Below, piece by piece: positions 15,720 to 43,532 of a stretch of 64,000 nt of DNA. Location of the stretch: assembly GCA_039815185.1 (NCBI GenBank), contig JBCBZT010000031.1:34094-98093 (forward strand), read 5' to 3'. The notes under the pieces were generated by a model. That model saw nothing but the letters and a program-made list of their open reading frames with translations, did no database searches and was not told where the DNA came from. Made by a program: the position numbers and the translations under genes. Position 1 is the first letter of the stretch; each line of letters begins with the position of its first letter. Source of the DNA: Cyanobacteria bacterium P01_A01_bin.123 (GTDB lineage: Bacteria > Cyanobacteriota > Cyanobacteriia > Phormidesmidales > Phormidesmidaceae).

Positions 15720-16326
15720 ACCGCGCCCCGTTATGACCTGTGACCAACCACACTAGGGCACGCAATCCATCCCGGATCACTTTCAGCCAAGATTCATCTG
15801 AGGGGCGATATTGAGATGGTTGAGCAACAGGCGCGATCGCAATTCCACGACTGCCAAAAATCAGTGTGGCAACCGTTTTCACCCGAGCCATATGGTAGTC
15901 AGAGGTGATCACATAGACATGACGAATCTCCTGGGCAGTGAAATCATCCGCCAACGTGGTGAAGTGGGTCACCGTATCTGTGGCTTGCACGTCGTAGCGT
16001 ACCCGAGTAGACACCTGCGCAGTTGCAAAAGCTTTTCTTACCCCAGATCGTTGGCTACAGTTGCCCGACACCCAAATTGGTAAGTCGGGATATTGCTGAG
16101 CAAATTTCGCGGCCTGTCGAACCCGATAATCCGGCCCGTCCAAAATTAAAATAGCCTGCGGTTCCGGATTTTGTTGGCGGGCCAGTGCTAGTCTCACCGC
16201 AATTAGCCCCGCGAACGATAAGGTTGCCCCAGCCCCGACTATGCCGATCAATATGAGGCGCCGCCGCCAAGACAGTTGGCACCAGCGCTTGATCCTTAAG
16301 ACGCTATTACCCACACGCTTAGCCAA
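15613..16326 (-). CDS. YdcF/ElyC (DUF218) family protein
   Basis: N-terminal TM, PQAILILDG, ATDTVTHF, VITSDYHMAR. Confidence 0.85.
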   Translation of the reverse strand: MAKRVGNSVLRIKRWCQLSWRRRLILIGIVGAGATLSFAGLIAVRLALARQQNPEPQAILILDGPDYRVRQAAKFAQQYPDLPIWVSGNCSQRSGVRKAFATAQVSTRVRYDVQATDTVTHFTTLADDFTAQEIRHVYVITSDYHMARVKTVATLIFGSRGIAIAPVAQPSQYRPSDESWLKVIRDGLRALVWLVTGHNGARFNPRLTAEATCGLQAGRRSRDGFLSARSPGVSPQD

Positions 16327-16768
16327 TCAATCGAAATCCTCGAACTCCCTGGTAGCTCCTATCTCGGGCCGTCCTTCTGGTAAATTCACTCACCGACGGA
16401 TTTCCCCCCGGTTGGATCACGCCGCTAACCTGCTGCCATAGGGATTCCGGGGCGGGTGAAAGCTCATAGCGATATTTGCCGCCTCGAAACTGTGAATTCT
16501 CATAGCTACGCACATGGTACCAAGTCGTCGCTTGACACTCTGGACACCAAAACGATTCCAACCATTCGTTGGACAGGGGCACGGTGGTGCAGCTTTGGAT
16601 CAACGTCAGTGCCGATCGACGCTTCATGCCACGCTGTTGCAGCTGCTCGGGCTTATCAGCAAACAACCGATACTTACGACTGGCACTATCCAGATAGCAG
16701 CCATGGATGGGACAGTAGATTGTCCGGCGCTTCGATCGATTACGGTTGCGATCGCATCGTCTAGTCAC
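16319..16768 (-). CDS. Hypothetical protein with Cys/His clusters (putative metal-binding)
   Basis: CPIHGC and FWCPEC motifs; packed tightly between wzc and ydcF. Confidence 0.7.
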   Translation of the reverse strand: MTRRCDRNRNRSKRRTIYCPIHGCYLDSASRKYRLFADKPEQLQQRGMKRRSALTLIQSCTTVPLSNEWLESFWCPECQATTWYHVRSYENSQFRGGKYRYELSPAPESLWQQVSGVIQPGGNPSVSEFTRRTARDRSYQGVRGFRLIG

Positions 16769-25417: not shown

Positions 25418-27010
25418 CTAGATTTGTAGCGTTTGGCGCAACCGAACCTGGTCTTCAGGAATCATGCTAAACCGACCTTTTTCGACATCACGTACCCAAC
25501 TCTGGCTTTTGCCAAGGCGTTCGGCTAGGGCACGTTGGGTAAAGTTTTGGCGTTGGCGAGCCGCTTTGATGGCGCTCCCCGAGAGTTGCGCGACTTGGGT
25601 TTTAGGAGACTGTCGGCGTTGACGCTTGGGTTCGCGACGACGTACGGTTTGTTGCCAGTCTTCCGACAGCTCAAACCCTAAGATTCGAGCATTCAGCAAC
25701 CGCTGCCATTTGTCTCGGGGTGCTGTATCTGTCAGGCTGCGGGCCTGATTGGCATCTTTGACCCAAAAATCGAGGGCATCGTCCACATCGTCAGGAATAT
25801 CAACGGCCTTGGCCCACAACGGCTGAATATCAAGCGGATAGGTCTCTGGATCAAATACGGGTTTTAGACCGTAGTAGTAAATGGTTTCCAGGTCGCTTTC
25901 AAAGGTCTTGAGCAAACGCTTGTGAGCGCCTCGCACGGTGGTTGCCTCAGTTAATCGTGTTTCACCATAGGCGATGCGTAGCAGGGTACGCACGGTTAAT
26001 CGATGGTCACCCCCCAATCGCAGCTTAAACAACAACCACAGGAGCAAGCGGATAGCGCCTTCATGTTGCTGCCAGTTGCTCATGATTTCTGTCAGCAGGG
26101 ATTGGGGTAAGGTGCCGTACTGGTAGAAGGCGATTTGGCGACGGTAGTCTCGCTTGTTGAGAAAGTGTTGAGACCAGATACCAGCTTGCAGCGTAAAGCT
26201 GAGGCCGATCAGGTGGCGAGCGCCCTGGGCATCTTCTTCAAAATGATATTCGGTGTCCAGCAAATGCCAGATTGGATGTTCATCTAGGGTAAAGGCGGGG
26301 ACTTTGCCCTGGGAGGGCCAGTCGAGGGTGACGAGAAGCTGGCAAGATTGGTAAACCAGCGTTTTGATCAGGGTCAGTTTGTCGAGTTTGGTGAGGTCTT
26401 TGCGCTTATTGAGTCCTAAATATTGCTCAATGTGCTGATCGTTTAACACAAAAGACTCTTCCCAAGGGCAGTCGAGGGTGGCGGCGTAAGCGGCAAAAAT
26501 TAAGTGAATACAGGTGGCGCGGATATCAAAGTTTGCGATCGCATCTGTTGCCTCAGACTCAGCCATCGGCACTAGAGAGTCGGCTTCGGGGTCTGCCGCC
26601 AAGCGAAACTGCATTTCTCCTCGACCGCGATGCACCGAACGACGGTAGCAGAATTGGCCGTCGCTATGGGTGTGCCAAGGCTGTCGCTGAGCCAAAACAT
26701 TGCAGGCTTCCCAAACCACCATGGATGATGCGAAGGATGCCGTTTTGCCATTGAGGAAGATGGCAGGAATAGCGGGAGGTAGGAGGGTACTTTTGAGACG
26801 TCCTTTTTTGGGTTGCAGGGGTTTTAACGACCCGACGCTACAGGCTTCAACGCAGCGAGGAATTGCTAAATCTGGGCACCCATCGCACAGGGTGGGATCA
26901 ATCCAATAGCCTTCCCGTTCAGTTTCAGGTTTGATGGCCCCATTGGGGCATTGGGGCTGACAGCTATCGCAGATGATGCAGTTGTCTTTGATGGTATAAG
27001 GCATGGGCAA
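25418..27010 (-). CDS. cnfR: CnfR/PatB-like regulator: N-terminal 2x[4Fe-4S] ferredoxin domain, C-terminal XRE HTH
   Basis: CIICDSCQPQCP and CDGC...CVEAC; C-terminal TQRALAERLGKSQSWVRDVEKGR; 530-aa length and architecture match PatB/CnfR. Confidence 0.75.
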   Translation of the reverse strand: MPMPYTIKDNCIICDSCQPQCPNGAIKPETEREGYWIDPTLCDGCPDLAIPRCVEACSVGSLKPLQPKKGRLKSTLLPPAIPAIFLNGKTASFASSMVVWEACNVLAQRQPWHTHSDGQFCYRRSVHRGRGEMQFRLAADPEADSLVPMAESEATDAIANFDIRATCIHLIFAAYAATLDCPWEESFVLNDQHIEQYLGLNKRKDLTKLDKLTLIKTLVYQSCQLLVTLDWPSQGKVPAFTLDEHPIWHLLDTEYHFEEDAQGARHLIGLSFTLQAGIWSQHFLNKRDYRRQIAFYQYGTLPQSLLTEIMSNWQQHEGAIRLLLWLLFKLRLGGDHRLTVRTLLRIAYGETRLTEATTVRGAHKRLLKTFESDLETIYYYGLKPVFDPETYPLDIQPLWAKAVDIPDDVDDALDFWVKDANQARSLTDTAPRDKWQRLLNARILGFELSEDWQQTVRRREPKRQRRQSPKTQVAQLSGSAIKAARQRQNFTQRALAERLGKSQSWVRDVEKGRFSMIPEDQVRLRQTLQI

Positions 27011-28312: not shown

Positions 28313-29698
28313 ATGATTAATGACAGGTGTGAAGATAAGTTACTTCTGGAAAGGAGTCGCATTAGTTACGAAGAATTAAAGAAGCATTCTACTTATTCGG
28401 ATGCGTGGATTGCAATCAACGGTCTTGTTTACGATATTACAGATTTTATTCCCAAACACCCTTTTGGTGACACCTTTAGAGGAAGTTTGGGGACAGATTG
28501 TAGCGGTTTATTCTCATCTGCACACATCCATACTAATGTAGAAAACCTCATCACAAATGAACGGTTTTTGAAGGAAAATGGCATAAAGGTAGTGGGTCAT
28601 CTCGATATAGGCCAAGATTATTTATACAAAGATAACGACAGTAAATACCTGGATAGAATAATTTACAAAAAACTCTGTAATGATGAGTTTTGGTTGGAGC
28701 TAAAAACCAAGGTTCACGAATATTTGATAGAAAATAATGAGTCGACACACTACTCTACACTTGAAGGGACAATTTATCTTCTATATTATTCTATTATATT
28801 CGTATTGCTATCATATCTAACCTGGATAAATTTCTCAGCCTTTTCAGCAGTACTATTAGGATTCCATATGGTTTGTGCATCAGCAGGTATGTCCCATATG
28901 GTTGCACATTTTGGCTTCACAGGAAATAAGTTACTAAATTTCGTCGCTTTGCATCTTATGGATCTAGGCGGATACTCATGGTTAGAATGGCAAATTGCTC
29001 ATCAGACACATCATAATCAACCTCATTCATCCATAGATTATCAAACTAATCAATATGCCCCCATACGTATTCATAAGTATGTAGAATATAATAATCATCA
29101 CAAATACCAGTACATTTATTTTTGGATAGGGATTTTGTTTTATCATTCTCGCATTTTCCCCATGAGTACTATTTGGATGATTAAGAGTAGAGAGTTTGTG
29201 CGTCACAAATATGAGGTAATTGCACACATCTCTGCAAAAGTAGTCTTTCTTTCACTTGTCACTTATTGCGGATACCTGCACGGCGTTTGGAATGCCCTAA
29301 TCCTGTTAACCGTATATTCAATATCCTTCTCATTTTTCGCTTTCATCTTGCTCTACAATGATCATGAGGAAAACCATAATGTATTGGCGCTAAATGAAAA
29401 TGTAAATCTTTATCATAAGAAGTTTTCATGGGCTGAAGTTCAAGTCAGAACGTCTGGTAATTGGTATCCGACTAATTGGTTACTAGCCTTTGTCGAATTT
29501 CATTACGGCTACTTTAATTACCATATAGAACATCATTTGTTTCCAGCTTTTAAGCCAAGTTTATTGAAAAAGATAAGTCCAATCGTTAAACATGTATGCA
29601 ATAAATATGACATTCCATACATTTCAACATCATTTCTTGAGGTTCATAAATCATTTCAAGAACACATCAAGAAAATGGGACTTCCCCAGAATAATTAG
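28313..29698 (+). CDS. Cytochrome b5-fused membrane fatty acid desaturase
   Basis: WIAINGLVYDITDFIPKHPFG b5 domain; His boxes HMVAH, HQTHH, HIEHHLFP. Confidence 0.85.
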   Translation: MINDRCEDKLLLERSRISYEELKKHSTYSDAWIAINGLVYDITDFIPKHPFGDTFRGSLGTDCSGLFSSAHIHTNVENLITNERFLKENGIKVVGHLDIGQDYLYKDNDSKYLDRIIYKKLCNDEFWLELKTKVHEYLIENNESTHYSTLEGTIYLLYYSIIFVLLSYLTWINFSAFSAVLLGFHMVCASAGMSHMVAHFGFTGNKLLNFVALHLMDLGGYSWLEWQIAHQTHHNQPHSSIDYQTNQYAPIRIHKYVEYNNHHKYQYIYFWIGILFYHSRIFPMSTIWMIKSREFVRHKYEVIAHISAKVVFLSLVTYCGYLHGVWNALILLTVYSISFSFFAFILLYNDHEENHNVLALNENVNLYHKKFSWAEVQVRTSGNWYPTNWLLAFVEFHYGYFNYHIEHHLFPAFKPSLLKKISPIVKHVCNKYDIPYISTSFLEVHKSFQEHIKKMGLPQNN

Positions 29699-29969: not shown

Positions 29970-30422
29970 TTACTTTTTCTTCCGGACATAGAGAATTTTT
30001 CTTACTTTGGCGACTAGGTCGCCATTTTGGTTCAGGACTCGAATGTCGAACTCAGGGAAGTAGGCATCTCCAGAGTTAGTATGATGTAAAATCTCCTCTA
30101 GATCATCTTTCTGTATAGAAATTGTGCTACTGACCGTGCCTTTACTAGGACTCACAAACTCTACCTTGGCGGCCTTATCCCAAACAATATAATCCTCGCC
30201 TAGAAGCTGCATTAGCATGAGCATCAAATGAGGATCTACCATTGAATATAAGCTCCCCCCGAAGTGGGTTCCAACTGCGTTCCGATTATAGCAATGCAGT
30301 TTCATGGAAACTCTGATTTCTGTCCAGTCGGGGCTGATGTAACGTACTCTTACTCCAGCACCAAGATACGGGCCGTAAAAATTTAAAAAAAGCTTTAAAA
30401 TTCGAGGGCTCAGTTTAAGCAC
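29970..30422 (-). CDS. Hotdog-fold thioesterase-like protein (DUF4442/YiiD_C)
   Basis: YGPYLGAGVRV, NRNAVGTHFGGSLYSMVDP, VWDKAA. Confidence 0.85.
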   Translation of the reverse strand: MLKLSPRILKLFLNFYGPYLGAGVRVRYISPDWTEIRVSMKLHCYNRNAVGTHFGGSLYSMVDPHLMLMLMQLLGEDYIVWDKAAKVEFVSPSKGTVSSTISIQKDDLEEILHHTNSGDAYFPEFDIRVLNQNGDLVAKVRKILYVRKKK

Positions 30423-30448
30423 GGATCAAAACTATACAACTTGGAGTA

Positions 30449-30535
30449 GTCGGGTAAAGGAGGAAGTTTTAGATATTGTTTCCTTCCTACCTTCAGAACC
30501 GTACGTACAACTTTCAATGTATACGGCTCAAGCAA
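30449..30535 (-). mobile_element. Group II intron 3' remnant (domains V and VI)
   Basis: Minus strand GAGCCGTATACATTGAAAGTTGTACGTACGGTTC is a 34-nt DV (AGC triad, GAAA loop, AC bulge; 30496-30529), followed by a DVI-like hairpin ending TTTACCCGAC; no RT ORF nearby. Confidence 0.85.
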
Positions 30536-30681
30536 CCTCTACCGCTTACCGATGCAATTGTTGATATAGACTAAATGGACAGCCATCAAATGGAGCTAAG
30601 ATTTTTTCCTCCTTGTCTTCAGATATACCCACACACTATGAAAGCAACGATGTCCTGAACACTAGATTTTGAGAAGATGCT

Positions 30682-32685
30682 TTATGCGCTTTGCGAGAAG
30701 CTTGATTTAACGAATCGAATACTAGTTTGTAGGACAACTCCTAAATCATCCGCAAATTCAGTAACACTAGCCAGATTTTTAGATTGAAACTCACCTTCGT
30801 GAAGTTTTTTAAGCGCTTGAATGACGGCAACAACCTCGCCACTCGATTGGTCGAATATGGGGGTTACTAAAATACTTCGAATTTTGTCGTCGGCGTCTTG
30901 GTCATTTTGAGGTTCAAGCCCTAAATCCTGGTCGGAGGCATGAGTAATAGTAGGTTTACCTGTCATTGCGACTGCTCCTGCAATTCCAGTATTGATGGGG
31001 ACTTCAACAGTGCAAAGTTGCCCTTCTTGTCTCATGGCTACATCATCAGTTTGTAAAACTTGTTTCTCACGATTCACAATGAAAAGATTGACAACTTCAG
31101 CGTCAATGATTTGAGATATTTTGCAAGATATCATCTGAAATAGGCCTTCAAGTTTATCTTTTATAACTGGATGCTCAAAGGTTAAACCTGAATTAATCAG
31201 TCGCTGCAGCTCTAAATTTGACTCGTTTAAGAATTCTGCAAATCTTTTGGTGGATAGAGCGATAACTTTGGCCCGAAGCATATCAACATTTGTCCGTAGC
31301 AAGGCTTCAACTTTAGAACGGATTTCGCTCGTGTTCGTTTGTACGATAGATGAAGTTACTGAAGAATAAATTTGTTGGGTATATGCAATACTAGACTGCA
31401 CTGTAAAGCCAAGGGATCGTGTCAATTCAAAGAAAATTTCTTCATCAGTATGATCGAACGGAAAATCTCCTATTTTATTCAGTGCTTGAACCACTGCAAA
31501 AACTTCTTGCCTCTGATTCACCATAGGCAAGCAGAGTATATTCCGAGTATGAAAACCCGTATCACGATCTACTTGAGGATTAAATCTTGAGTCATTGTAG
31601 GGATCAGTAATATTTAAAGTCTCTCCTGTAGTAGCCACATATCCGGCAATGCCAGAATCTATAGGAATTTCAATGCTGATCAATTGCCCTTCTGTGCCCC
31701 GTGCATTTTTCGACCACAAAATTTCACGAATACTATCAACCACAAAGAAAGTGACTTGCTCAGCTTTAAGTAATTGAGCAATTTTCAATGAAATAGCTTG
31801 AAAAGTGATTTCAAGCTTCGAGTTAAATGAACGATCTCTAAGTAAGGTCATTGAACTCGAAATCTGCTCTAATTCTTGATTGAGTTTATTTAAGAAGTTA
31901 GTAAATTGAGAATCAGATAGAGGGGTAATTAGATTATGGATTTCATCGATTTCGGTGTCTACAATAAATGAGGTTAGATTACTTAAACCCAGCAGAAACT
32001 CACCTTTAGAAGCAGATAAACGACCATCTTCTAAGCTGATAATGCGATCGGCAATATCGAGAATACGGTTATCATGGGTTACCAAAATAATTGTGCAGCC
32101 TTGCTGTCTTGCTAATCTTTGCATCAGTTCTACAACTTCACGACCTGTATGTCCATCCAGAGAGGCCGTGGGTTCATCAGCTAAAATAACTTGTGGCTCA
32201 TTAACCAAAGCACGCGCAATGGCCACCCGTTGCTTTTGGCCCCCAGACAGTTGATCGGGGCGTTTAGTTAAATGTTGCCCTAAGCCCACAGCTTCTAAAG
32301 CAGCCTGCGATCGCGCTTTTGATTCCTTCCCTGAGATGGGATACAGAGCCGCAGCCATTTCTACATTTTTGATAGCGTTAAGCGAGCTCAACAAATTGTG
32401 TTCTTGAAAAATGAAGCCAATTTGACGACGAATTTTTTCTAGACGTCCACTACTGACGCCGCGCATCTCCTGACCTAAGATTTGCAAGGTACCTTCCTCA
32501 ACCGCTCTTAATCCTCCGATTAAAGTTAGCAGCGTCGTTTTGCCAGAGCCAGAAGGCCCAGTCATAATCACAATTTCTCCCAGATTAATCTCAAGATGTA
32601 TATCAAATAATATTTGGCGACGGAGACGTCCTACTCCGTAATAATGGTTAAGATTATCGATGAAGATCGTGGGTTGTAATGCCAT
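30682..32685 (-). CDS. devA: DevA-family ABC ATPase fused to two C-terminal GAF domains
   Basis: GPSGSGKTT, IGFIFQEHNL, LSGGQKQR, ILADEPTASLD, VTHD; then two helix+GAF modules (SGIAGYVATTGE...ILCLPM...QALNK..F...DE); ATG 32685 preferred to the track start at 32745. Confidence 0.9.
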   Translation of the reverse strand: MALQPTIFIDNLNHYYGVGRLRRQILFDIHLEINLGEIVIMTGPSGSGKTTLLTLIGGLRAVEEGTLQILGQEMRGVSSGRLEKIRRQIGFIFQEHNLLSSLNAIKNVEMAAALYPISGKESKARSQAALEAVGLGQHLTKRPDQLSGGQKQRVAIARALVNEPQVILADEPTASLDGHTGREVVELMQRLARQQGCTIILVTHDNRILDIADRIISLEDGRLSASKGEFLLGLSNLTSFIVDTEIDEIHNLITPLSDSQFTNFLNKLNQELEQISSSMTLLRDRSFNSKLEITFQAISLKIAQLLKAEQVTFFVVDSIREILWSKNARGTEGQLISIEIPIDSGIAGYVATTGETLNITDPYNDSRFNPQVDRDTGFHTRNILCLPMVNQRQEVFAVVQALNKIGDFPFDHTDEEIFFELTRSLGFTVQSSIAYTQQIYSSVTSSIVQTNTSEIRSKVEALLRTNVDMLRAKVIALSTKRFAEFLNESNLELQRLINSGLTFEHPVIKDKLEGLFQMISCKISQIIDAEVVNLFIVNREKQVLQTDDVAMRQEGQLCTVEVPINTGIAGAVAMTGKPTITHASDQDLGLEPQNDQDADDKIRSILVTPIFDQSSGEVVAVIQALKKLHEGEFQSKNLASVTEFADDLGVVLQTSIRFVKSSFSQSA

Positions 32686-33216
32686 TCTCTTTGATATTTT
32701 AGTATTACGGTGAACACCGGAAAGAAATGAGATCTGATAATTCAATTCAACAAAATCAACGCAGATTATTTAAAGACTTTATTAAAGACGATCAAGATCA
32801 ATGACTTGACTTAAATAACAATAAATAAAATTCGTTACATTTCTTCTTGCATCTTCGCTTCGGCATAGCACCTCAACTGTAAACAATCTTCTGAACTTAG
32901 TTTGAGCTCTGTTGATACTGCTTGTCAGGTTTTGGGAACAATTCTAAAGAATCAATTAGGTAGCGCTACCCGTTATTAGTGACTGTCATCATTTAGATCT
33001 TCAAGTCCTTTCAGAACAACAGTGAAAACACTTAGCTGGTGTTATTGACGCGGGTGTGTTACGGCTTGTCCCGCAGGCCTCTGAAACTAACTGATGGCAC
33101 GCCCTAAAGTGAATAGCAGTCCTAATTAGACAAAAAGATATCCTTAATAGCTTTGGGGCAGCTCTAGCCTGCAATCAACTTCAGTTGCATCAATCTTTAT
33201 AACTAGAATCTTTATC

Positions 33217-34560
33217 ATGCAGACTTTTATCGATCGCATCTCCACGGATAACGTCGTGAAACTTTACAAAAAGATATATGTTCGCTGGCCCAAGCTTTGG
33301 TTCATTTCTTTAGTGAGCATTACGTTCATATCAGCTCTTGGTGTCTTTTCAATTAGGAGTGTTCTCTGGGAAGAAAAGGTTGGTAGTCAAGTTGCATCGA
33401 CAACTCCAAATGAATCTGCTGAACCACAAGCAGTCTCTGCTTTAGGCTTTCTGAAACCTGAAGATGAAGTGACGAATCTATCAGGAGCTGTACCCCCTGA
33501 AGGTACACGCCTTACTCAGTTACTGGTGGAGCAAGGCGATCAGGTCGAAGCAGGACAAATCGTTGCTGTTCTCGACAATAAGGAGCGCTTAGAAGCTGCT
33601 TTGAGAAGGGCTGAAGCCCAAGTTGTCATAGCCCGTTCTCGGCTTTTGCAAGTAGAAGCAGGCGCTAAAGAAGGGGAGATTGATGCCCTGGAAGCTAAGC
33701 TTAAAAGTTTAGATGCTGAGCTACAAGGCCAAATCATTGCTCAGCAATCCACGATTAGACGATTAGAGGCAGATCTGGAGGGAAATACAGCCGCGCAAAC
33801 AGCAATCAACGATCGCATTGCTGCTGAGTTTATCAATGCTGAAGCTGAATGTAGGCGCTTTGAGCAACTCTATATCCAAGGTGCTATTGCAGAATCTGAG
33901 TATGAATTGAAGTGTTTACAGCAAAAGATTGCTTACGAACAGAAAATTGAATCTGAGGTTACACTGACTCGCATTACAAATAGCGGTCAGGAACAAATAA
34001 CGGAGGCAGAAGCACAACTCGGAAGAACAATCAACACAATTCGAGCCCAACAAGCAGAGACTCAAGCAACTCTTGCTCAAACCTCTGAAGTTCGTGATGT
34101 TGATATTACCCTTGCTCAGGCTGAATTAGCCGATGCCATGGTCGGTGTTCAGCAAGCTGAGGCAGATCTTGAGCTAGCCTACGTTACAGCACCTCGTTCA
34201 GGTCAAGTGCTGAGAATTAACACCCGACCAGGTGAAATGATTACCAATCAAGGAATTGTGGAACTTGGTCAAACGCAGCAAATGTATGTAGTTGCTGAAG
34301 TCTACGAAACCGATATTAGTCGAGTTCGCCTAGGACAGTTGGCAACTATTACCAGTAATGCTATACCTGATACCTTACAGGGGACAGTCGACGAAATTGG
34401 TTTGCAAATTGGCCAGCAGGAAGTTTTTAGTACGAACCCTACTTTTGACATCGATGCCAGAGTGGTAGAAGTCAAGATTCGTCTTAACCCAGAAGACAGT
34501 CAGCAAGTTTCAGGTATGACTAACTTGAGAGTAGGAGTAGTCATCGAAACGTCTGGTTGA
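33217..34560 (+). CDS. devB: DevB-family membrane fusion (HlyD-type adaptor) protein
   Basis: N-terminal TM, VSALGFLKP, long coiled coil, VVAEVYETDI, DARVVEVKIRL. Confidence 0.9.
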   Translation: MQTFIDRISTDNVVKLYKKIYVRWPKLWFISLVSITFISALGVFSIRSVLWEEKVGSQVASTTPNESAEPQAVSALGFLKPEDEVTNLSGAVPPEGTRLTQLLVEQGDQVEAGQIVAVLDNKERLEAALRRAEAQVVIARSRLLQVEAGAKEGEIDALEAKLKSLDAELQGQIIAQQSTIRRLEADLEGNTAAQTAINDRIAAEFINAEAECRRFEQLYIQGAIAESEYELKCLQQKIAYEQKIESEVTLTRITNSGQEQITEAEAQLGRTINTIRAQQAETQATLAQTSEVRDVDITLAQAELADAMVGVQQAEADLELAYVTAPRSGQVLRINTRPGEMITNQGIVELGQTQQMYVVAEVYETDISRVRLGQLATITSNAIPDTLQGTVDEIGLQIGQQEVFSTNPTFDIDARVVEVKIRLNPEDSQQVSGMTNLRVGVVIETSG

Positions 34561-34630
34561 GGTGGTTCTTTATTAACACGGACAGCCGTCGTAATTTCGA
34601 CTTTGTAAAAATCAAACAGTCGTATGTCGT

Positions 34631-36205
34631 ATGTCATTGCCCTCATCGCTTGCACCTCAAGAACCTCATCTGAGAAGTCAACTGCCTGCAAGTCTTTACG
34701 CCAGATTATGGATTGATCCGACAAGCGTCGTGCTCAAAACCGTGATGCAGCATCTCAATACTCTGCAATATCTATTATCTCAATACTTACCCTATGATGT
34801 GGTCGAAAATCCCCCTGATCCAGGTCAGCTAAATTGGCACTGGCAGACTCGTACATTGATGTTTACTGACTTAGCTGGGTTTACTCACCTCACTCAAACT
34901 CATGCACAGAGAGGTACAACTGGTGCCAAATTCCTAGCCGACTTGCTCAACAGCTATTTTTCTAAAGCAATTGATGTTATCAACACATCTGGCGGAGATT
35001 TATTAGAATTTACTGGAGATGCGATGTTAGTGGAGTTTGCTGACTTCACTTCGAAGCGATCTATTGCTAAAGCAATTCGCGCCGGACTCCGCCTCCAGCG
35101 AATGATGACGGAATTTACAACAGTTAAGACATTCGCAGGTGAACAGACATTAACAATGCGTATCGGCCTTCATAATGGTCGGTTCCTTACAGCAGATGTC
35201 GGTACTCCTATGCGAATGATGCACATTTTGTTAGGCAAAACAGTGCGACAAGCTAAACAGACTGAGACCATCGGATTAGTTGGGCGAGTTTGTATAACTG
35301 AAGAATCTGCAGAGGAGGTTGCTGATGCTTTTCGATTTGAATCTCATCAACCAGGATATCTACTAGTTCGTGATGACTTTGATTCTGATACCTTAGGTGG
35401 TTTCGATATCACCTTACGAAAGCAGCGTGTTCGGCATAGTCTCTTGGTTCTTAATCAGACTGAGGCAGAGATCATTCAGGAAATTAATCGTCTCTTAGAT
35501 AAAAATATTCCCCTGAGTAGCTACATTGCACCACAGGTTCTGAAGTTACTTGTAGAGAATGCCTGTACGCATAATATTCCGCCTGCTTTTTCGCGTTCAG
35601 CTGTTTTGTTCGTCAACCTTCTAGGTCTACCTGAAGCTGCTGATCATGTAAATTCCTCGACCGAAGAAATTCAAGTACTTACAACCCTCTCTCACTTATT
35701 TGCTCAGATCAACAGCTTAGTTGAAGCCAAGGATGGATTCCTTCAAGAATGGACTTATCACCTATACTCAGATATCCTGATTTACTTTGGTATTCCTAGC
35801 GGTCACATTGATGATGCCATTCGTGCGGTAAAAGTTGCTTGTCAAATCTCAAACTTAGTCAGTCAGCTCCCTTTGCTTCAGATTAATAATCAAACTTTCC
35901 AAATCACATGCCAAATCGGTATAGATTGGGGCATAGTGGTAGCAGGAGAAATTGGTCACTCTTTCGGTCGTCGTGACTATAATGCCCTGGGTGATCCCGT
36001 GAATCGTGCGGCCTATATTATGAGCCAAGCCGATAGCAATCAAATCCTGATGACGGATACCATAGAGCAAGAAATCGCTTGTGAATGCAGTCTACTAAAT
36101 ATTGACTTACCCTTTCAACTTCAGCTAACTGAGAAGATGATCATGAAAGGAGATAAGAAATCAATTTCTGTATTTACGATAGATGCTTTATCGACTCAAA
36201 TTTAA
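34631..36205 (+). CDS. Tandem-domain class III nucleotide (adenylate/guanylate) cyclase
   Basis: C1: MFTDLAGFT, LLEFTGDAML, MRIGLHNG; C2: VLFVNL, QIGIDWG.VVAGEIG, DYNALGDPVNRAAY. Confidence 0.85.
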   Translation: MSLPSSLAPQEPHLRSQLPASLYARLWIDPTSVVLKTVMQHLNTLQYLLSQYLPYDVVENPPDPGQLNWHWQTRTLMFTDLAGFTHLTQTHAQRGTTGAKFLADLLNSYFSKAIDVINTSGGDLLEFTGDAMLVEFADFTSKRSIAKAIRAGLRLQRMMTEFTTVKTFAGEQTLTMRIGLHNGRFLTADVGTPMRMMHILLGKTVRQAKQTETIGLVGRVCITEESAEEVADAFRFESHQPGYLLVRDDFDSDTLGGFDITLRKQRVRHSLLVLNQTEAEIIQEINRLLDKNIPLSSYIAPQVLKLLVENACTHNIPPAFSRSAVLFVNLLGLPEAADHVNSSTEEIQVLTTLSHLFAQINSLVEAKDGFLQEWTYHLYSDILIYFGIPSGHIDDAIRAVKVACQISNLVSQLPLLQINNQTFQITCQIGIDWGIVVAGEIGHSFGRRDYNALGDPVNRAAYIMSQADSNQILMTDTIEQEIACECSLLNIDLPFQLQLTEKMIMKGDKKSISVFTIDALSTQI

Positions 36206-36379
36206 GCACAGTAATAGTGAAATAAAGTATCTCAATCATTGCGTTATATTGAGACGCCTAGCTACACTTTATTACGTTCAAGATGAAAAACTAGTATGCA
36301 TCCTCAGGTAACTGTATGGTAGGTACATATTGTGAAGTTTCCATCTGTATTCAGTCTTTCATATTGCTAAGGTGCAAAT

Positions 36380-37555
36380 ATGCTTCGGACACTTGCGATC
36401 GCTTGGGCGCAACTTATGCATCAAAAGCTCCAAACAACCGTCACGATTCTGGGAATTGCTTTTACGACAGCTTTACTATTCATGCAGATCGGATTTCGGA
36501 TTGGTCTCTTAGAAAGCAGCACTCAACTTCCTGCTAGCTTTCAAAGTGACGTTGTCATCATCAGTAATTCTTCGATCTCATTTTTGGTTGCTGTACCTTT
36601 TTCAGAACGTCGTTTGGCTCAAGTTCTCGCCTTTGAAGAGGTAGAAGCAATAACACCTATCTACGTCACTATGACATCTGTAAAAAGATTAGACGAACAA
36701 TCTCAGTTTATGGCTTCCATACAGGTGATTGGGTTTCCTCTAACGGAAAATGTAGTTGAGTTGCCTGGCTTAGGAGAAAACCTAAAAAAATTAAAGGGGG
36801 ATGATCTTTTTTTGCTAGATGGCAGATCTCGATCGGAGCTAGCAAACTTAATCAATGAAGTCAAAAATAATGGTAGGGCCAGTACCGAAATAATGACCGC
36901 AGGTTTTGAGCGTAAGAAAATAGACGTTGTGGGCCTTTTTGAGATGGGTGCTAGTGCTTTCTATAATGGAAACTTGATTACCAGCGAAAGCAACTTCCTC
37001 AAGACATTTGGCCTAGGACAGGGAGAAATAGTTGCTGGATTGGTGCATGTTAGGCCTGGAGTTGACATTCCTAATTTAGTGTCTCGAATCCAAGAATACC
37101 TTCCCGAGGATATGAAGGTAATGTCTAAGAAAGACCTGATTAAGGAAGACAAGACTTACATAGAATCTAGCTCTCCAATGGGGATAGTCTTTTTGTTTTC
37201 AATGATCTTTTCAATTATTATTGGGGTTGTCATTTTATATCAAGTCCTCTATCAAAACATATCAAGATTTACCAAAGAGTACGCGACATTGAAAGCCATT
37301 GGCTACAGTCAAAGATTTTTGGTAGAGATTGTTTTGGAGCAAGTCTTTGTTTTTGCTGTTCTAGGTTATATTCCCGGTCTCATTGTTTCATATTTTGTCT
37401 ATGATGCACTATCTGAAGTGACTAAGATGAAGTTTTTACTGAGCTTTAATATTGCCTTTTTTGTCTTCTTCCTTGTGTGCTTAATCTGTGGAGTTTCTGG
37501 GATTATTGCGACTAATAAACTGAAGGATGCAAATCCTGTTGATATTTTTAATTAA
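36380..37555 (+). CDS. devC: DevC-family ABC permease (FtsX-like)
   Basis: LAIAWAQL, LLFMQIGF, ILYQVLY, EYATLKAIGY, KLKDANPVDIF. Confidence 0.9.
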   Translation: MLRTLAIAWAQLMHQKLQTTVTILGIAFTTALLFMQIGFRIGLLESSTQLPASFQSDVVIISNSSISFLVAVPFSERRLAQVLAFEEVEAITPIYVTMTSVKRLDEQSQFMASIQVIGFPLTENVVELPGLGENLKKLKGDDLFLLDGRSRSELANLINEVKNNGRASTEIMTAGFERKKIDVVGLFEMGASAFYNGNLITSESNFLKTFGLGQGEIVAGLVHVRPGVDIPNLVSRIQEYLPEDMKVMSKKDLIKEDKTYIESSSPMGIVFLFSMIFSIIIGVVILYQVLYQNISRFTKEYATLKAIGYSQRFLVEIVLEQVFVFAVLGYIPGLIVSYFVYDALSEVTKMKFLLSFNIAFFVFFLVCLICGVSGIIATNKLKDANPVDIFN

Positions 37556-37585
37556 AGCTCTAATGCTTAGAATGTAGATGTATTT

Positions 37586-38077
37586 TCACGATGGCGATAC
37601 TACAAGTGGTTTGTAAACCTCACCTTCGTAGGGTTGCCAAACATAGCCTGTGCTAAAAGGTCTAAATGTTGAAGGTGAGTTCATTGCCTGCCAAACGGCA
37701 TCAGATAAAACCAAGCCTGGAAGACTTAAGTTAGAAGGCTCATCTAGTAATTCGCTATACGTTCTGAATTCATCAACCTCTACGCCAACCAAAGCGTAAC
37801 GGAAAGCAGGAGCCGTTCGTAGTTTTTGATGGAGCAAAATACCTAATTCCGTCATCAAATAAGCAGACTCTGGTGCTGCAATACCGATCTCGCTAACGCC
37901 ACTAGGGCAAACGCGACACCACCAGCTTTCATCAGTATCTTGGAATACTGTAATCAGACATTGAGCTCGAGCACCACTTGACAGAACCCAACTGGCATCC
38001 TCAAAGTGCCTAGAAAACTGTTCTGCACCATTTTTATCCGGGCCAAGTTCGGCTGACAAGCTAAATACCCAAGCCAT
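37586..38077 (-). CDS. Hypothetical protein
   Basis: 163-aa ORF with plausible composition filling the gap between devC and the CHAT gene. Confidence 0.65.
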   Translation of the reverse strand: MAWVFSLSAELGPDKNGAEQFSRHFEDASWVLSSGARAQCLITVFQDTDESWWCRVCPSGVSEIGIAAPESAYLMTELGILLHQKLRTAPAFRYALVGVEVDEFRTYSELLDEPSNLSLPGLVLSDAVWQAMNSPSTFRPFSTGYVWQPYEGEVYKPLVVSPS

Positions 38078-38255
38078 CTTGATCTACCTTTTCCCAATCA
38101 TTCTGAGTTGCAGCGATCGCTGCCTCGTACCGTTCTAGTAGCATTGTAGTTCTTGAAAAAAGACGAGCACTACGGCCCACCCTAGGTTTGCCATGTCGTC
38201 CTGCCATCCCTCGATAGTAAAGCTGAGTCATATGGGGTGTAGTTGAAGACAGCTT

Positions 38256-40952
38256 CTACTGCCCATTGCCAGTGAGCCCAAATGCCGCCCAGTAATAAGG
38301 ATGGGCATAGTCTTGTCTAATTTGTTGCTGCGCTTGCTGTAAAGCCTCAGCCGTAGACATCCCCTGCTGCAGAAACCCATAGAATTCTGCCATCAATAAG
38401 GCGGTTGCCTGGTCGCTAATGGGCCAGAGGGTAGCGATGACGTTAGGCGTACCCGCAAACAAAAACGCCCGATTCAACCCAATGATCTCATCGCCATCGC
38501 TAGCGTCTCCGACCTGGGTTTGACAGGCGCTAAGCACGACAAGTTGAGTGTGGGTTGTTAAATCTAACTCATAGATTTCGTGAACCTGCAAACGCCCGTC
38601 GCTATCGCCCCCGCCACTATTGCCACCACCGTTATTGTCGATGCCATCGCGACCCCCAACCGCGTCTGTAAACAGAATTTGGCTAAACAGAGGATTGTTG
38701 GCGTTGTACTCACCGTGGGTCGCCAGGTGAAGAATACTGGCTTGATTGGCTTGCGATCGCAGCTGTTCTTCAGTCGCGGCTTTACCAATGACAGGTTGGA
38801 CATCATAGAGGGCCGCAATATCTCGGGCTTCTTCGCCAGCAAACGGTAAATCAAATGTGGGATTGCCAAAAATAACTGGATTGCCCGAGTTTTGGGAGGG
38901 GGCTTCTAAAAACCGCAAGACGTTAGCACTCGGCAGCAGGGTCAGCTGATGGCGATCAATTAAATACTGTTGGCCATCTGTCAGGGCGGCAAAAGGCACA
39001 TAGTGAAGGACACCATGGGGAACAATGGCTAACCGCTCTGTCGTTAGACGGGACTGCAAGGGAGCCATCAACGCTGCCTGTAACTGCTTGAGGCCAGCAG
39101 GGTGAGGTGAGGCGAGGGTGGCAACGTCGTATTCGTAAAAGGACTGCACAGCCTCAGCCGCCGTTGCCCGGTCGAGAGAGAGTTCCTGGGCATGAAAGGT
39201 GTCTTGGGTGATGACGAAGGCTAAAACCCGATCATCAAGCGTAAAGTATTCAACCAGCGTGGTCTGCGAGTCAAGCAACCCTTGAATCACGCCGAGTGAT
39301 GCCGGAGCCACTGCCGTTAAGTCAGCCGCCTGAGGACTTTGCCGCTTCAAACGCTCGATTAACACGAGATAGTCCTGCTGGCGCTGCGCGAGTGTGTCTT
39401 TGAGCGCTGCCATTTGTCCCGGATCTGCGGCGACTAGCGTTAAGCGCTCCAGTTCATCTTGAAGCTGAGTGAGTTCTGCCTTCAGGGATTGTTCACGGAC
39501 TAAAAGTTCACCCTCAACGGTGGTGCGAAACAGAATCGGATCGTTAGCAATTTGGTCTAAAAATGCCCGCGATCGCGATCGCTCGACATAATCAAACGCT
39601 AGCCGATACTCACCGCTATCCCACAGCAGCTCAACTAAACGACTATAAACATGGGCATGCTGAGCGGCAAAGCCACTTTTCAAACGACTGCTTTGAATAT
39701 TGGCCAGGGTAGACTCAAATACCTCATCAACCGCTCGCTGGTAGTAGACCCGAGACTGCTGCGTATCCTCCAAGCTGTCATAGAGCCGACCCAGGTCAGT
39801 TAATACCTGGCCTTGAGTCGGTAAATCATTAATTTCCTCAGCCAGCTGTAGTGCCTCTAAATAAAAAGTCTCGGCTTGGGCATAATCCCCCAAGCTAGCC
39901 AATACATTGCCGATATTGTTTCGCAGTAATGCCTCTTGGGCGCGATCGCCCTGCTGGATATACAGATTTAACGCCTGCTCGTAGGCCGCTAGGGCTTCGT
40001 CGTAGCGCTGCTGAGCGGCATAAAAGCCACCAATATTATTAGCCAATACGGCTTCTTGTACCGGATTAATGCTGGCGGTAGGCCCTTGCCGCCGTAGATC
40101 CAGCACCTCCTGATAGCGTTGCTCTGCAGCTGTCAAATCATCTTGAACAATATGAATGGAGGCGATGTTGATTAATGTGGCAATCGTGCTGATTCTATCA
40201 ATACCGCTAATGGATAGCGCTTGCTCATAGGTTTGCAAAGCTTGCGCATAGTCCCCCAAGCTGTAATAGGTGACACCGATATTATTGAGCACACGACTTT
40301 CGCCTTGGGGGTCTACGCCTGCGATAACGCTGAGCGCTTGTTCGTGCACTCTCAAAGCGTCTTCGTACTGAGCTTGGCTGCGGAGGAGATTTGCAATTTC
40401 GTTGAGCACAATTGCCCGTTCGCGTTGGCTACCGAGATCGGTATGTATGGCCAGGGCTTGATCGTAACGTGACTGCGCCTGACCATACTCCCCCAGTGCC
40501 TGCAAGGAACGCCCTATCTCGGTCAGCACGAGGGCGCGATTGAATTGAATACTGCGAAGATTTGTGGCATTGTCTGTGCCCGTATAACGCGTCTCTAATT
40601 GATCCCACAGATCTAATGAGAGCTGATGTTGGTCAATCGCACTCGCATACCGCCCGATTGCATAGTAGGTGCGGCCAAGTTCATAGAGCGCTTCTGCAGC
40701 CAAGGCCTGATCATTCGCCGCGATCGCCAAATTGACGGCCGACTGTAGGGAATTGAGGGCAGCTTCATAGGCCTGTTGGCTAAACTGCTGGCGACCCTGC
40801 TGATAGAGCTGTTCGGCATCTAGAGATTGGGCGATCGCAGGCTCATTTAACTCGATCCTGACTGTGCCATCAAACCCAGCCAGCCCGATCGAACTACAAA
40901 CCCCCATGAAGAGAATGGCAATAAACTTTGGGACTGGGTGATGCAAGGCCAT
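38256..40952 (-). CDS. TPR + CHAT (caspase-like) domain protein with signal peptide
   Basis: Multiple TPRs (LNNIG), ERSRSRAFLD, IVPHGVLHYVPF, catalytic LHLATHG and VVLSACQT, HPYYWAAF. Confidence 0.92.
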   Translation of the reverse strand: MALHHPVPKFIAILFMGVCSSIGLAGFDGTVRIELNEPAIAQSLDAEQLYQQGRQQFSQQAYEAALNSLQSAVNLAIAANDQALAAEALYELGRTYYAIGRYASAIDQHQLSLDLWDQLETRYTGTDNATNLRSIQFNRALVLTEIGRSLQALGEYGQAQSRYDQALAIHTDLGSQRERAIVLNEIANLLRSQAQYEDALRVHEQALSVIAGVDPQGESRVLNNIGVTYYSLGDYAQALQTYEQALSISGIDRISTIATLINIASIHIVQDDLTAAEQRYQEVLDLRRQGPTASINPVQEAVLANNIGGFYAAQQRYDEALAAYEQALNLYIQQGDRAQEALLRNNIGNVLASLGDYAQAETFYLEALQLAEEINDLPTQGQVLTDLGRLYDSLEDTQQSRVYYQRAVDEVFESTLANIQSSRLKSGFAAQHAHVYSRLVELLWDSGEYRLAFDYVERSRSRAFLDQIANDPILFRTTVEGELLVREQSLKAELTQLQDELERLTLVAADPGQMAALKDTLAQRQQDYLVLIERLKRQSPQAADLTAVAPASLGVIQGLLDSQTTLVEYFTLDDRVLAFVITQDTFHAQELSLDRATAAEAVQSFYEYDVATLASPHPAGLKQLQAALMAPLQSRLTTERLAIVPHGVLHYVPFAALTDGQQYLIDRHQLTLLPSANVLRFLEAPSQNSGNPVIFGNPTFDLPFAGEEARDIAALYDVQPVIGKAATEEQLRSQANQASILHLATHGEYNANNPLFSQILFTDAVGGRDGIDNNGGGNSGGGDSDGRLQVHEIYELDLTTHTQLVVLSACQTQVGDASDGDEIIGLNRAFLFAGTPNVIATLWPISDQATALLMAEFYGFLQQGMSTAEALQQAQQQIRQDYAHPYYWAAFGLTGNGQ

Positions 40953-40995
40953 GACATTATTTCCTGACGGTTACCGTGTCGACTGTCTCAAGCAG

Positions 40996-41898
40996 TTAAT
41001 CATTAAATGTGGCCAGCCAATTGGCAATAGCCTCGGCTTCAGCCTCGTGATTAAGGCGTAAGTAAAGGGCTTGGGCTTCATTCAGAAGCCGTACGGCCTC
41101 ATCAGGATTACGCGTGCCCAGCGCCAGGTGGGCCAAGAACACATTAGCGTCTGCTTGTTCAGCTAAATTGCCAGTGTCTAGGGCCAGTGCTCTGGTTTGG
41201 GTAAAGGCATTGCCCGCACGCGTATTGAGATTGACCTGCAGATACAGTTCCCCCAACAAGCGATAGAGCGCGACCGACTGAATGCTTGCATCACTGAGAT
41301 TCTCAAGTAGGGCGATCGCGTCACTCATTAAGTTGTAATCACGATAGAGTCTGGCCCGCGCCAGGTCTGCATCCAAAGGGGTGAGATTTTGGGCTGCGAT
41401 CGCACCTAAATCTGCTTCTAACCGCTCAACATCCGCTTCGGGTAATCGGTAGAAAGATAGCCCCGGCAATCCCTCATCGGCAGACGAGATGATCGTGGGG
41501 TTGCTGGTGCCTGAGTTCAGTTGGGTTTTGATGATTAAGGAATATTGCACATCAAATTCCAAAGCAGGAGAACCTGCATAGGCAATTTCGCTAGTCTCGG
41601 CAACGGTCTCCCAAAGTACCCCGTCCGGGCCTCGCAAGGTAACCGTATAGGTGGAGGCTGACGGTACCGGATTCCATTGGAATTGAGGAGTAGAGCCGAG
41701 GATAGCTGTCCTGCGGGGTGTGATCACATAGGGAATATCTGATCGCGTCCCCCCTCGTGGGCTGCCGACTTGGGGTTGTCCCCCGGTAAACAATTCCCGT
41801 AAGAATCGCCAACCCGGTACGGCCATGGCCGGCATGATTAGGCTGTTGCCGACCAGCAGAATGGTAATGACTGCTGTTGCCAGTTGTTTTAGCTTCAC
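40996..41898 (-). CDS. Secreted protein with DUF928-like N-terminus and C-terminal TPR-like helices
   Basis: Signal peptide, GSPRGGTR, PQFQWNPV; overlaps the upstream gene by 4 nt. Confidence 0.65.
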   Translation of the reverse strand: MKLKQLATAVITILLVGNSLIMPAMAVPGWRFLRELFTGGQPQVGSPRGGTRSDIPYVITPRRTAILGSTPQFQWNPVPSASTYTVTLRGPDGVLWETVAETSEIAYAGSPALEFDVQYSLIIKTQLNSGTSNPTIISSADEGLPGLSFYRLPEADVERLEADLGAIAAQNLTPLDADLARARLYRDYNLMSDAIALLENLSDASIQSVALYRLLGELYLQVNLNTRAGNAFTQTRALALDTGNLAEQADANVFLAHLALGTRNPDEAVRLLNEAQALYLRLNHEAEAEAIANWLATFND

Positions 41899-43532
41899 TG
41901 TGGTTCCTCCAAATCACCCTGAATACGCTGACCCGCTTTGAAGAACCACTCATGTTCTTCAGGATTTTGCAACGTTTCGGGATAGCTACGGCAATCTTGC
42001 CAGGCCATCAGGGCCCGCTGGGAACTTTCAAGCGCCTCCAGACTCTGAGCCAGCAGACAATAGGCTACGGCCCTCTGATCGTCTAGCTCAATAGCTTGCT
42101 GCAGCCGATTCACGGCTTCTCGATGAAAACCTAAGCCCTGCAATGCCCAGGCCGTATTTTTGAGCAACGTGTAGCGCAGTTCTGAATTTGTGTTTGCATC
42201 TTGGGTGTAGTGCTGCACTTGGGGATTTTGCAATAGGTTGAGGGCTTCGAGGTAATTTTCATCCAGCATTTGCAACCGCGCTAGGTTATTGTAAGCCTCG
42301 ATCTGCCCGCCCTGGGTCGCCAACGCATATTCCGAACGTGCTTGCCCGTAGTCCTGCAAATCTTCGTAAAGTAACCCTAGGTTGTAGTGGGCTTGGGGAA
42401 GGTTCGGGTAAAGCGCAATTGCCCGTTGATAATTTGCTTCCGCGCTGCTGAAATCTCCCGCGCGATAATCTAGTAGGCCTAAATTGTTATAAGCCCTGGC
42501 AAAGATTGGCAATGAGGAACGCATGCCAATGAAGATAAATAGCAGGACTGTCGCGCCTAAGCACCGGATTTCCTGCCAATAGTGCTTAGGCAGCTGTAAC
42601 GTCTCTAAAGCCCGCGCCACGAGCTGCTTGCCCGTCTTGGTTAGGGAACCACCGCCAATCAGTGCTAAAGACGCCTGTGTAATCACCGCAAACCCGCCAA
42701 CGACCCCAGGCCCGCCAGTTAGAAACCGGGTTACGGTATCTGTCAACAAACTAAAGCTTGCCGTTAGAAACACCAGCGTCAGCGCATTCCAAACCCAATC
42801 TAAGCTATCCCACCAATGAACATTGACTTTAGAGAACCACCACCAGGCATCGACGGGCGGATTAAACACACGACGCACCTTGTCGAGTTGATCGAGCATC
42901 TTGCTCAAATGACGGCGATCGGCCTGCTGAGAAAGGTCGTCTAGCTGGTGTCGAAAGTGGTCATCCAGCTGCCCCAATTTTGCTAACTGCTCGGCACTGA
43001 GTTCACCACTTTCGACCTGTTGCTGCAACCCATCGCGGACGCGATAAACTTCTAAAATTTGCCGCGTCAACCCGATGTGATGCTCTGTAGTCGGTGCCGC
43101 AATCGCCGCTGCCGCAACAGTCGCCTCCGCATCTGCAGACTGTTGCAGGGACGAGTCAGCCAATCTCGAAGGGTAATTGTCGAGCTGCGTAATCAGGTGT
43201 TCATAGACACTCATGGGGTCGAGTTGCTGGGGCCGATTGGCCTCATCTAAAAACCACCACCAAGCCTGCGGCTGAGGATTGACTAAGGCCCGCCAGCTAG
43301 CAAAATCAAAGATTTGTAGGGCTTGTTCAACCCGGCTTTTTAGGCGCTGATCGTACTGGAGGATCACCAGCAGCATGGCAGAAGAGACCGACGTTTGCTG
43401 CAGTGCCTGCTGGACGCGATCGCGATTCACCAAAACCGTCAAGGCCTCTTCGGGCGTTGGATCATCAGACTGCTCTAGCGTGATTAGCGCGGCCCCATAT
43501 TGATTCAGGACATCATCAATCGGGAAAGTCAT
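41895..43532 (-). CDS. Membrane protein with C-terminal TPRs
   Basis: Central TM helices; YNNLG, AHYNLGLLYE, AYNNLARL TPRs. Confidence 0.8.
   Translation of the reverse strand: MTFPIDDVLNQYGAALITLEQSDDPTPEEALTVLVNRDRVQQALQQTSVSSAMLLVILQYDQRLKSRVEQALQIFDFASWRALVNPQPQAWWWFLDEANRPQQLDPMSVYEHLITQLDNYPSRLADSSLQQSADAEATVAAAAIAAPTTEHHIGLTRQILEVYRVRDGLQQQVESGELSAEQLAKLGQLDDHFRHQLDDLSQQADRRHLSKMLDQLDKVRRVFNPPVDAWWWFSKVNVHWWDSLDWVWNALTLVFLTASFSLLTDTVTRFLTGGPGVVGGFAVITQASLALIGGGSLTKTGKQLVARALETLQLPKHYWQEIRCLGATVLLFIFIGMRSSLPIFARAYNNLGLLDYRAGDFSSAEANYQRAIALYPNLPQAHYNLGLLYEDLQDYGQARSEYALATQGGQIEAYNNLARLQMLDENYLEALNLLQNPQVQHYTQDANTNSELRYTLLKNTAWALQGLGFHREAVNRLQQAIELDDQRAVAYCLLAQSLEALESSQRALMAWQDCRSYPETLQNPEEHEWFFKAGQRIQGDLEEPQ

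Follow-up and report, generated by a model that had tools for sequence, protein, structure and literature searches.

The window analysed here, a stretch of 64,000 nucleotides of contig JBCBZT010000031.1 from Cyanobacteria bacterium P01_A01_bin.123, encodes a DevBCA-type ATP-binding cassette (ABC) exporter whose ATPase, DevA, continues for about 440 residues into two modules, each formed by a helical linker and a GAF domain. We propose that this pump exports a desaturated lipid and is gated by the cyclic-nucleotide (cNMP) pool of the cell. The proposal, to which we assign a probability of about 0.45, joins the observed architecture, residues and gene neighbourhoods to a function that we infer from them. 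An initial annotation of the same DNA had suggested that a nucleotide cyclase gene lying between devB and devC makes a second messenger that is either sensed directly on the transporter motor or exported. The locus is less of a closed circuit than that, and its best-conserved partner, a fatty-acid desaturase gene, had been missed. The DevA-GAF fusion is already auto-annotated in databases; new here are the desaturase link, the altered ligand pocket and the diagnosis of a probable pseudo-cyclase.

All three subunits score above the curated NCBIfam cut-offs: DevA with TIGR02982 (338 vs 295.8 bits), DevB with TIGR02971 (306.7 vs 129) and DevC with TIGR01185 (316.7 vs 290.35). The Walker A, Q-loop, signature, Walker B and H-loop motifs of DevA are all intact, as judged by motif positions. 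Pfam assigns ABC_tran and two GAF stretches to DevA and two Guanylate_cyc stretches to the product of the gene between devB and devC, and the four open reading frames (ORFs) lie where the initial annotation had placed them. In the AlphaFold2 (AF2) model of full-length DevA the individual domains fold, while their relative arrangement is not fixed (predicted TM-score, pTM, 0.36). The start of devA is likely ATG 32685, giving 667 residues, since this is where the database entry P0001 and close homologs begin; TTG 32745 is only the first start of the ORF caller. Two OEP/TolC-family loci are present in the genome, on contigs C26 and C49, both unlinked to the dev cluster, and their pairing with the pump is putative. 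With its three subunits above the cut-offs, an unlinked TolC-type gene and lipid-pathway neighbours, the system resembles the DevBCA-HgdD glycolipid exporter of Anabaena PCC 7120. It differs from that exporter in the extended DevA, the divergent orientation of devA relative to devB and devC, the desaturase partner, the cyclase-like gene inside the cluster and a cargo that is deduced only from neighbours.

The best match of the DevA tail in the PDB is the tandem GAF structure of the cyanobacterial cyclase CyaB2 (1YKD, E 8e-40); the GAF domains of the phosphodiesterases (PDE) PDE2A and PDE5 are also matched, by both sequence and fold. The CyaB-like ORF of the same genome aligns over the helix and GAF of the tail at 42%, in agreement with the earlier impression that each module resembles the N-terminal helix and GAF-A of CyaB. 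The NK..F..DE (NKFDE) motif of the first GAF was found at exactly 31441–31485, as had been stated, and the degenerate second copy at 30775–30816. This motif is a hallmark of cNMP-binding GAFs (PMC4411481, PMC11977230). We tabulated pocket residues for 41 rows of the DevA-GAF family and for 72 CyaB-like proteins (144 GAFs), with the CyaB2 numbering (PMC4411481) mapped by sequence alignment rather than by superposition. In GAF1 each of N, K, F, D and E is present in 41 of 41 rows, and so are the equivalents of T293 and D356; three more pocket sites are occupied by Thr/Ser or Gln/Glu, again in 41 of 41. Two of these three (Thr/Gln) are taken to belong to the pocket. The residues of the ribose/phosphate side and of the N7 side (T293, D356, N359 or Thr) are thus in place, and judging by them GAF1 probably binds a ligand and the module is a probable cyclic-nucleotide sensor. 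The helix+GAF fold, the NKFDE motif and the pocket Thr, Asp and Gln are common to DevA and CyaB2; in DevA they are attached to a transporter ATPase.

Only GAF1, and not the tandem, looks ligand-competent. In GAF2 of the window the NKFDE residues N, D and E are replaced by K, N and L, respectively, and the pocket Thr positions are occupied by Asn, Ala and Ile. Module 2 is 34% identical to module 1 over 203 residues. Compared with the genomes G406, G412 and G418, its dN equals 0.45–0.48 against 0.11 for module 1 (about four times faster), and it is missing from the single-GAF orthologues at loci L004–L006, which are nested in the same clade. GAF2 is probably a decaying duplicate that does not bind ligand, and the pair reads as a duplication within the DevA family, not as a functional tandem or a captured GAF-A/GAF-B pair of the CyaB2 type. 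A quick tree of GAF domains (147 columns), used only for this purpose and for the separation from CyaB, places the near-identical module copies of protein P0011 as a duplication inside the DevA family; its sister placement of GAF1 and GAF2 is without support.

The homolog search listed 120 proteins, 38 of which combine an ABC ATPase with GAF. They fall into a one-GAF class of about 450 residues and a two-GAF class of about 660 residues. DevA-GAF is rare and was found in 2 of 401 sampled cyanobacterial genomes, in 8 of 173 genomes of the order to which the window belongs and in 6 of 401 of another order; eight further, more distant ATPase-helix-GAF proteins include one named Acidobacteriota. 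The same helix+GAF module is fused onto two unrelated transporters, which suggests a portable transporter sensor. One of them, P0050 (L173:2477–4750), is a cyclic-peptide ABC exporter that ends in the module; the other, P0356, appears by eye to be a fusion of a histidine phosphatase and a membrane transporter with the module at its end. The DevA-GAF of L176 (9552–10934) has an altered start of Walker A, and L177 and L178, initially matched by their long devA frames, turned out to be plain DevA. A full-text literature search, whose scope leaves subscription papers largely outside, gave no account of DevBCA or of an ABC ATPase with GAF or cyclic nucleotides. GAF is nowhere mentioned in the first 300,000 characters of PMC8277102 or in the review PMC10710835.

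Gene neighbourhoods were compared within 6 kb on each side of the ATPase at 22 DevA-GAF loci, four of which end at contig ends, and at 49 plain devA loci. The latter comprised 40 of 50 non-self matches (eight near contig ends and the two weakest were excluded), four loci from the same genome and five (L024–L028) from a metagenome scan whose patterns came from ABC motifs and which gave 80 plain ATPase loci. A cytochrome b5-fused desaturase gene is present at 11 of the 22 DevA-GAF loci and at none of the 49 plain loci; the loci that have it show several gene orders and come from both sides of the tree. No other partner gene of DevA-GAF is as well conserved. Among the 173 genomes of the order, seven of eight desaturase carrier genomes are common to both genes; the exceptions are G432, with a frameshifted desaturase and no pump on its 8 kb contig, and G448, with a DevA-GAF of a different clade. 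The three His boxes of the enzyme are conserved across 92 homologs, and its b5 domain contains an HPGG-like haem motif. Its third box begins with His; that of front-end desaturases begins with Gln. Most of the remaining DevA-GAF loci contain genes for polyketide synthases/nonribosomal peptide synthetases (PKS/NRPS), for fatty acyl-AMP ligase–acyl carrier protein–thioesterase (FAAL-ACP-TE) and a lipase, for polyprenyl synthase, fatty-acid hydroxylase or CMAS. DevBCA pumps are known to accompany cyanobacterial lipid clusters (PMC6836626). The desaturase is the probable maker of the pump cargo, and the assumption that this cargo is a lipid is, given the desaturase, modestly favoured.

Genes with a cNMP-related function were found at 5 of 22 DevA-GAF loci and at 1 of 49 plain devA loci (L184, a convergent cyclase); by locus, the Fisher p-value equals 0.01. 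On a tree built for the ATPase and GAF1 (24 rows) they correspond to three gains: in the window clade, at L108 and at L175. The coordinates of the features of the locus are given in Table 1.

Table 1. Features of the DevA-GAF locus (positions in the window).
Feature	Position	Strand	Description or basis
desaturase gene	28313–29698	+	cytochrome b5-fused membrane fatty-acid desaturase, 461 aa; PF00173 and PF00487; convergent on devA
DUF4442/YiiD-like putative thioesterase	29970–30422	-	150 aa; PF14539; accessory
devA	30682–32745 (ORF; start likely ATG 32685)	-	ORF list; P0001 and close homologs
module 2, duplicated helix and GAF2	30682–31353	-	NKFDE and pocket degenerate in this genome
module 1, helical linker and GAF1	31378–32013	-	PF01590; matches to 1YKD, PDE2A, PDE5
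DevA ABC ATPase domain, residues 1–224	32014–32685	-	TIGR02982; motif positions; MacB/LolD-like folds
devA–devB intergenic region, divergent	32686–33216		531 nt
devB	33217–34560	+	DevB membrane-fusion (adaptor) protein; TIGR02971; one N-terminal transmembrane segment (hydropathy)
cyclase-like gene	34631–36205	+	524 aa; soluble C1+C2 class III protein, architecture of human soluble adenylyl cyclase
devC	36380–37555	+	FtsX/MacB-type permease; TIGR01185, PF02687; four transmembrane segments (hydropathy)

The cyclase-like protein between devB and devC is modelled by AF2 with pTM 0.92, and its best Foldseek matches are structures of the human soluble adenylyl cyclase (sAC, ADCY10) with TM-scores of 0.68–0.72. 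It shares with the ADCY10 core the C1+C2 pseudo-heterodimer in a single chain (TM about 0.7), the metal-binding Asp residues and the equivalent of Asn412; it differs in the loss of the equivalents of Arg416 and Lys334 and in the family-wide replacement of Lys95 by Glu and of Arg176 by Lys. The two-domain sAC-like family was found in 52 of 173 genomes of the order and was aligned in 124 rows, 13 of which (11 clusters and two near-duplicates) form the subclade of the window protein. Arg at position 462 (Arg416 of sAC) is present in 111 of 124 rows and in none of the 13 subclade rows, which have Tyr, His or Cys there (Tyr462 in the window). Loss of this Arg reportedly cripples catalysis. Lys at position 373 (Lys334 of sAC) is present in 94 of 124 rows and in 2 of 13 subclade rows; the window protein has Glu373, and the others Gln, Asn, Asp or Lys. 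In sAC, Arg416 and Lys334 are responsible for alpha-phosphate/transition-state binding and base recognition (PMC12867704 Table 1, PMC9223806). The sAC bicarbonate pair Lys95/Arg176 (PMC12867704) corresponds to Glu126/Lys209 in 124 of 124 rows. Because the equivalents of Arg416 and Lys334 are lost, the protein is more probably than otherwise an inactive or weak cyclase. An intact paralogue is encoded elsewhere in the genome, as are about twenty further class III cyclase domains, so that the pump does not depend on the inserted gene for cNMP.

A second structural neighbour is PDB 6YII, a class III adenylyl cyclase-like ATP-binding protein from Pseudomonas aeruginosa, which has the same two-domain fold (TM 0.56, E 5e-9), only 12% identity and another family and context. 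The 6YII protein reportedly lacks cyclase activity and would be a precedent for a nucleotide-binding pseudo-cyclase; a literature search on cyclase pseudoenzymes or 6YII found no paper. The sAC-like family (about 520 residues), widespread among bacteria, includes the window gene, the paralogue G000:C122:3757–5187 and the genes at L116–L142, with cyanobacteria and Chloroflexota among the named records. Genes labelled, from their sequence starts, as MinD-like, radical SAM or hisI-like often lie close to its members. A search for prior characterisation of the two-domain family found none.

Several observations weigh against a lipid exporter gated by the general cNMP pool. The desaturase is missing at 11 of 22 DevA-GAF loci, and the pump-linked members make up only a small part of its family. 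No cNMP gene was found at 17 of 22 loci; when kin are merged, the enrichment becomes modest (3 of about 13 arrangements against 1 of 49 plain loci; p about 0.03 in a one-sided Fisher test), the neighbour categories were set post hoc, and the probes for the cyclic-nucleotide-binding domain (CNB) and HD were derived from the same loci. The pocket itself is altered at two positions. In GAF1 the equivalent of Arg291 is Gln in 38 of 41 rows and that of Ile308 is Asn in 39 of 41, whereas CyaB-type GAFs have Arg291 in 143 of 144 and Ile, Val or Leu at 308 in 144 of 144. In CyaB2 both residues face the purine, Arg291 by a contact with N1 and Ile308 by a ring contact (PMC4411481). Since both are replaced, the GAF1 ligand may be other than cAMP. 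With the pocket mostly fixed and two ring-facing residues changed, GAF1 has a nucleotide-type pocket that is under constraint and whose choice of base is uncertain. In favour of cNMP binding, the distant DevA-GAFs outside the cyanobacterial clade keep the CyaB Arg in five of eight proteins and Ile/Val in seven of eight.

The clade-wide substitutions in an otherwise fixed pocket argue for a sensor of something other than cAMP or cGMP, such as another purine nucleotide or a metabolite linked to the cargo, which would provide feedback on export. The presence of the module on the unrelated transporters P0050 and P0356 points in the same direction. So does HetC, a cyanobacterial ABC exporter whose 'cNMP' domain can prefer ppGpp and does not bind cAMP (PMC10986499); HetC is a peptidase-containing exporter and its regulatory domain is not a GAF, and by analogy it warns that the ligand can differ from the name of the domain. 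Against this explanation stand the intact residues of the ribose and cyclic-phosphate sides, the intact NKFDE motif and the recurrence of cNMP genes near DevA-GAF, and on balance we consider it unlikely.

A further set of observations concerns the local circuit of the initial annotation, taken here to mean that the inserted gene encodes a rewired but active cyclase, which may use GTP and whose product goes straight to GAF1. The metal residues Asp80 and Asp130 as well as Asn458 are retained and invariant in 124 of 124 rows. An Arg is newly gained at position 459 in 11 of 13 subclade rows and might compensate for the lost Arg462. The gene evolves under purifying selection (dN/dS about 0.09–0.13) and is not decaying; the devB-cyclase-devC order is kept in G000, G406 and G412 at 74–75% identity. 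Moreover, the adenine-selecting residues are missing from both the cyclase-like protein and GAF1. On the other side, the cyclase is a single late gain. The full layout with the desaturase was found only in the window, G406 and G412, and this type of cyclase adjoins DevA-GAF at 3 of 22 loci, all from one derived clade. Together with L105, which ends at a contig end, these three loci form one clade (support 100/98) within a 10-row clade (100/100), where in the outer members L004, L005 and L011 devB lies directly beside devC; L004 is a locus of the culturable Leptolyngbya sp. PCC 7375. The cyclase is likewise absent from orthologues with 83% identity, in which devB and devC are adjacent (G430 and G449), and no match to it at E 1e-20 was found in these two genomes. 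The Gln/Asn pocket is characteristic of the whole family, including L108 with its canonical cyclase, and many other cyclases are present in the genome. A dedicated pump subunit was also considered and rejected, as G074, G572 and G576 encode the Arg-less type with no dev gene around it (none in the fetched DNA, which for G576 is a 5 kb contig). The missing linkage to cyclases at other DevA-GAF loci goes a long way towards the outcome that the initial annotation had named as contradicting its model. We consider the local circuit doubtful: the cNMP-type GAF on the DevA motor is real, conserved and constrained, and there is no support for a supply of its own messenger as a defining feature of the locus.

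The L108 locus (9479–16575, genome G448), where a canonical cyclase, an HD/PDE-like gene, a type II thioesterase and a BT1/MFS gene separate a two-GAF devA from devB and devC, makes a stronger candidate than does the window for a genuine local cNMP circuit on the pump. In its cyclase, directly beside devA, the Lys, Asp, Asn and Arg are all intact; the HD/PDE-like gene, also adjacent to devA, is a lead without a curated family. Both genes are absent from the sister locus L107. At L175 (4878–11502, genome G718) the order is devB, a cNMP-binding protein, two devC genes, devA-GAF and a fusion of a cNMP-binding domain with a CAAX protease, next to a CMAS-type methyltransferase. A metallo-beta-lactamase gene beside devA at L009 was rejected as a phosphodiesterase given its weak Pfam scores and altered metal motif.

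It is also improbable that the GAFs serve only as a dimerisation or structural scaffold with no gating, and that the cNMP neighbours are chance insertions in a mobile island of low GC content. In favour of this reading, the genes of the island have a GC content of 35–46% vs 50% in the genome (35–45% for the block from the desaturase to devC), consistent with an acquired island, and GAF2 freely decays or is lost. The NKFDE motif makes no ligand contact and also stabilises the GAF fold (PMC11977230). In contrast, the buried ligand-contact residues of GAF1 are near-invariant over 41 rows, unlike those of GAF2, and the cNMP neighbours are enriched relative to plain devA. Export of the cyclic nucleotide itself, the other option of the initial annotation, found no support and is very improbable: only the co-location of a cyclase in one clade speaks for it, whereas MacB-type pumps take periplasmic or membrane amphiphiles, the neighbours are lipid enzymes and most loci have no cyclase. 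The known DevBCA exports glycolipids (PMC8277102).

The spacers between devB, the cyclase-like gene and devC are 70 and 174 nt, respectively, and one operon is plausible. The terminator and promoter scan remained at the level of shuffled sequences: of nine terminator-like sites called, none falls into either spacer, and promoter-like sites were no more frequent than in shuffles (27 vs 24.3 +/- 4.7). None of the seven sequencing runs listed holds RNA. The assembly is borne out by public contigs: one from sequencing run X1, possibly the source of the window itself, covers 30448–38500 with zero differences, and others from run X4 (same study as X1) differ by few substitutions over the span from devA to devC. 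More than 100 close homologs of the b5-fused desaturase family occur in metagenome records, its nearest Atlas clusters being eukaryotic; the desaturase orthologues in L006 (4915–6291) and L158 (2399–3899) are split by a stop or a frameshift. The DUF4442 thioesterase gene adjoins the desaturase in L006 and L158 as well and is absent between the desaturase and devA in L104 and L106. At L010, L012 and L160 a Nostoc PKS/NRPS cluster with a carbamoyltransferase and a class III aminotransferase carries devB-devC-devA-GAF; one copy lies on a conjugative plasmid beside Tn7-like genes. The plasmid search gave one DevA-GAF record, in this Nostoc cluster without a cyclase, and no match for the desaturase.

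Other genes of the window include an exopolysaccharide cluster at 1–20182, with low GC content over the first 12 kb, which encodes an ABC ATPase, two sulfotransferases, a TupA-like ATP-grasp protein, MurB- and MurA-like proteins, glycosyltransferases, Wzc and Wza. The region 25418–27010 encodes a 4Fe-4S dicluster protein with a C-terminal helix-turn-helix domain, which we take to resemble PatB/CnfR. Downstream of devC, an ORF of 163 residues (37586–38077) is convergent on it, has no family match and was not seen in related loci. A TPR-CHAT protease is encoded at 38256–43532 together with two TPR proteins, and CHAT paralogues are numerous in the genome.

We return to the DevBCA exporter gated by the cellular cNMP pool. 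In the proposed mechanism, two DevA-GAF-GAF motors, DevC, DevB and a TolC-type channel from another locus would form a MacB-like tripartite pump. Its cargo would be a lipid-type product, most likely one on which the neighbouring b5-fused desaturase has acted. On the motor, helix+GAF1 would draw a purine cyclic nucleotide, with cAMP as the likeliest, from the general pool, and the bound GAF1 would alter the closure of the two ATPase domains via the helical linker, in the manner of the C-terminal domains of MetN and OpuA. The C2 domain of MetN, ModC and the c-di-AMP-binding CBS domains of OpuA are fused C-terminal ligand domains that tune ABC ATPase activity or transport (PMC10710835); these systems are importers and their domains are not GAFs. 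By this analogy, an effect on transport would be quite likely once the ligand is bound. The sAC-like gene was inserted once between devB and devC, in the ancestor of a small clade, and is retained by selection; its product probably has hardly any cyclase activity, if any, and would act as a passenger or regulator that binds nucleotides.

Few direct effectors are known for the many cyclases of cyanobacteria. A GAF on a MacB-type motor would link cAMP or cGMP directly to envelope or lipid secretion, and such a motor would offer a clean model for how transporters of this class are controlled allosterically. A broader generalisation is less probable than the gated exporter itself and at present tentative: cyanobacteria may graft a CyaB-derived helix+GAF with a rewired Gln/Asn pocket onto lipid exporters and repeatedly recruit cNMP components, the Arg-less sAC-like protein making a non-canonical cNMP or regulating the pump. 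If this is true, such pumps would provide signal-triggered secretion of a desaturated lipid.

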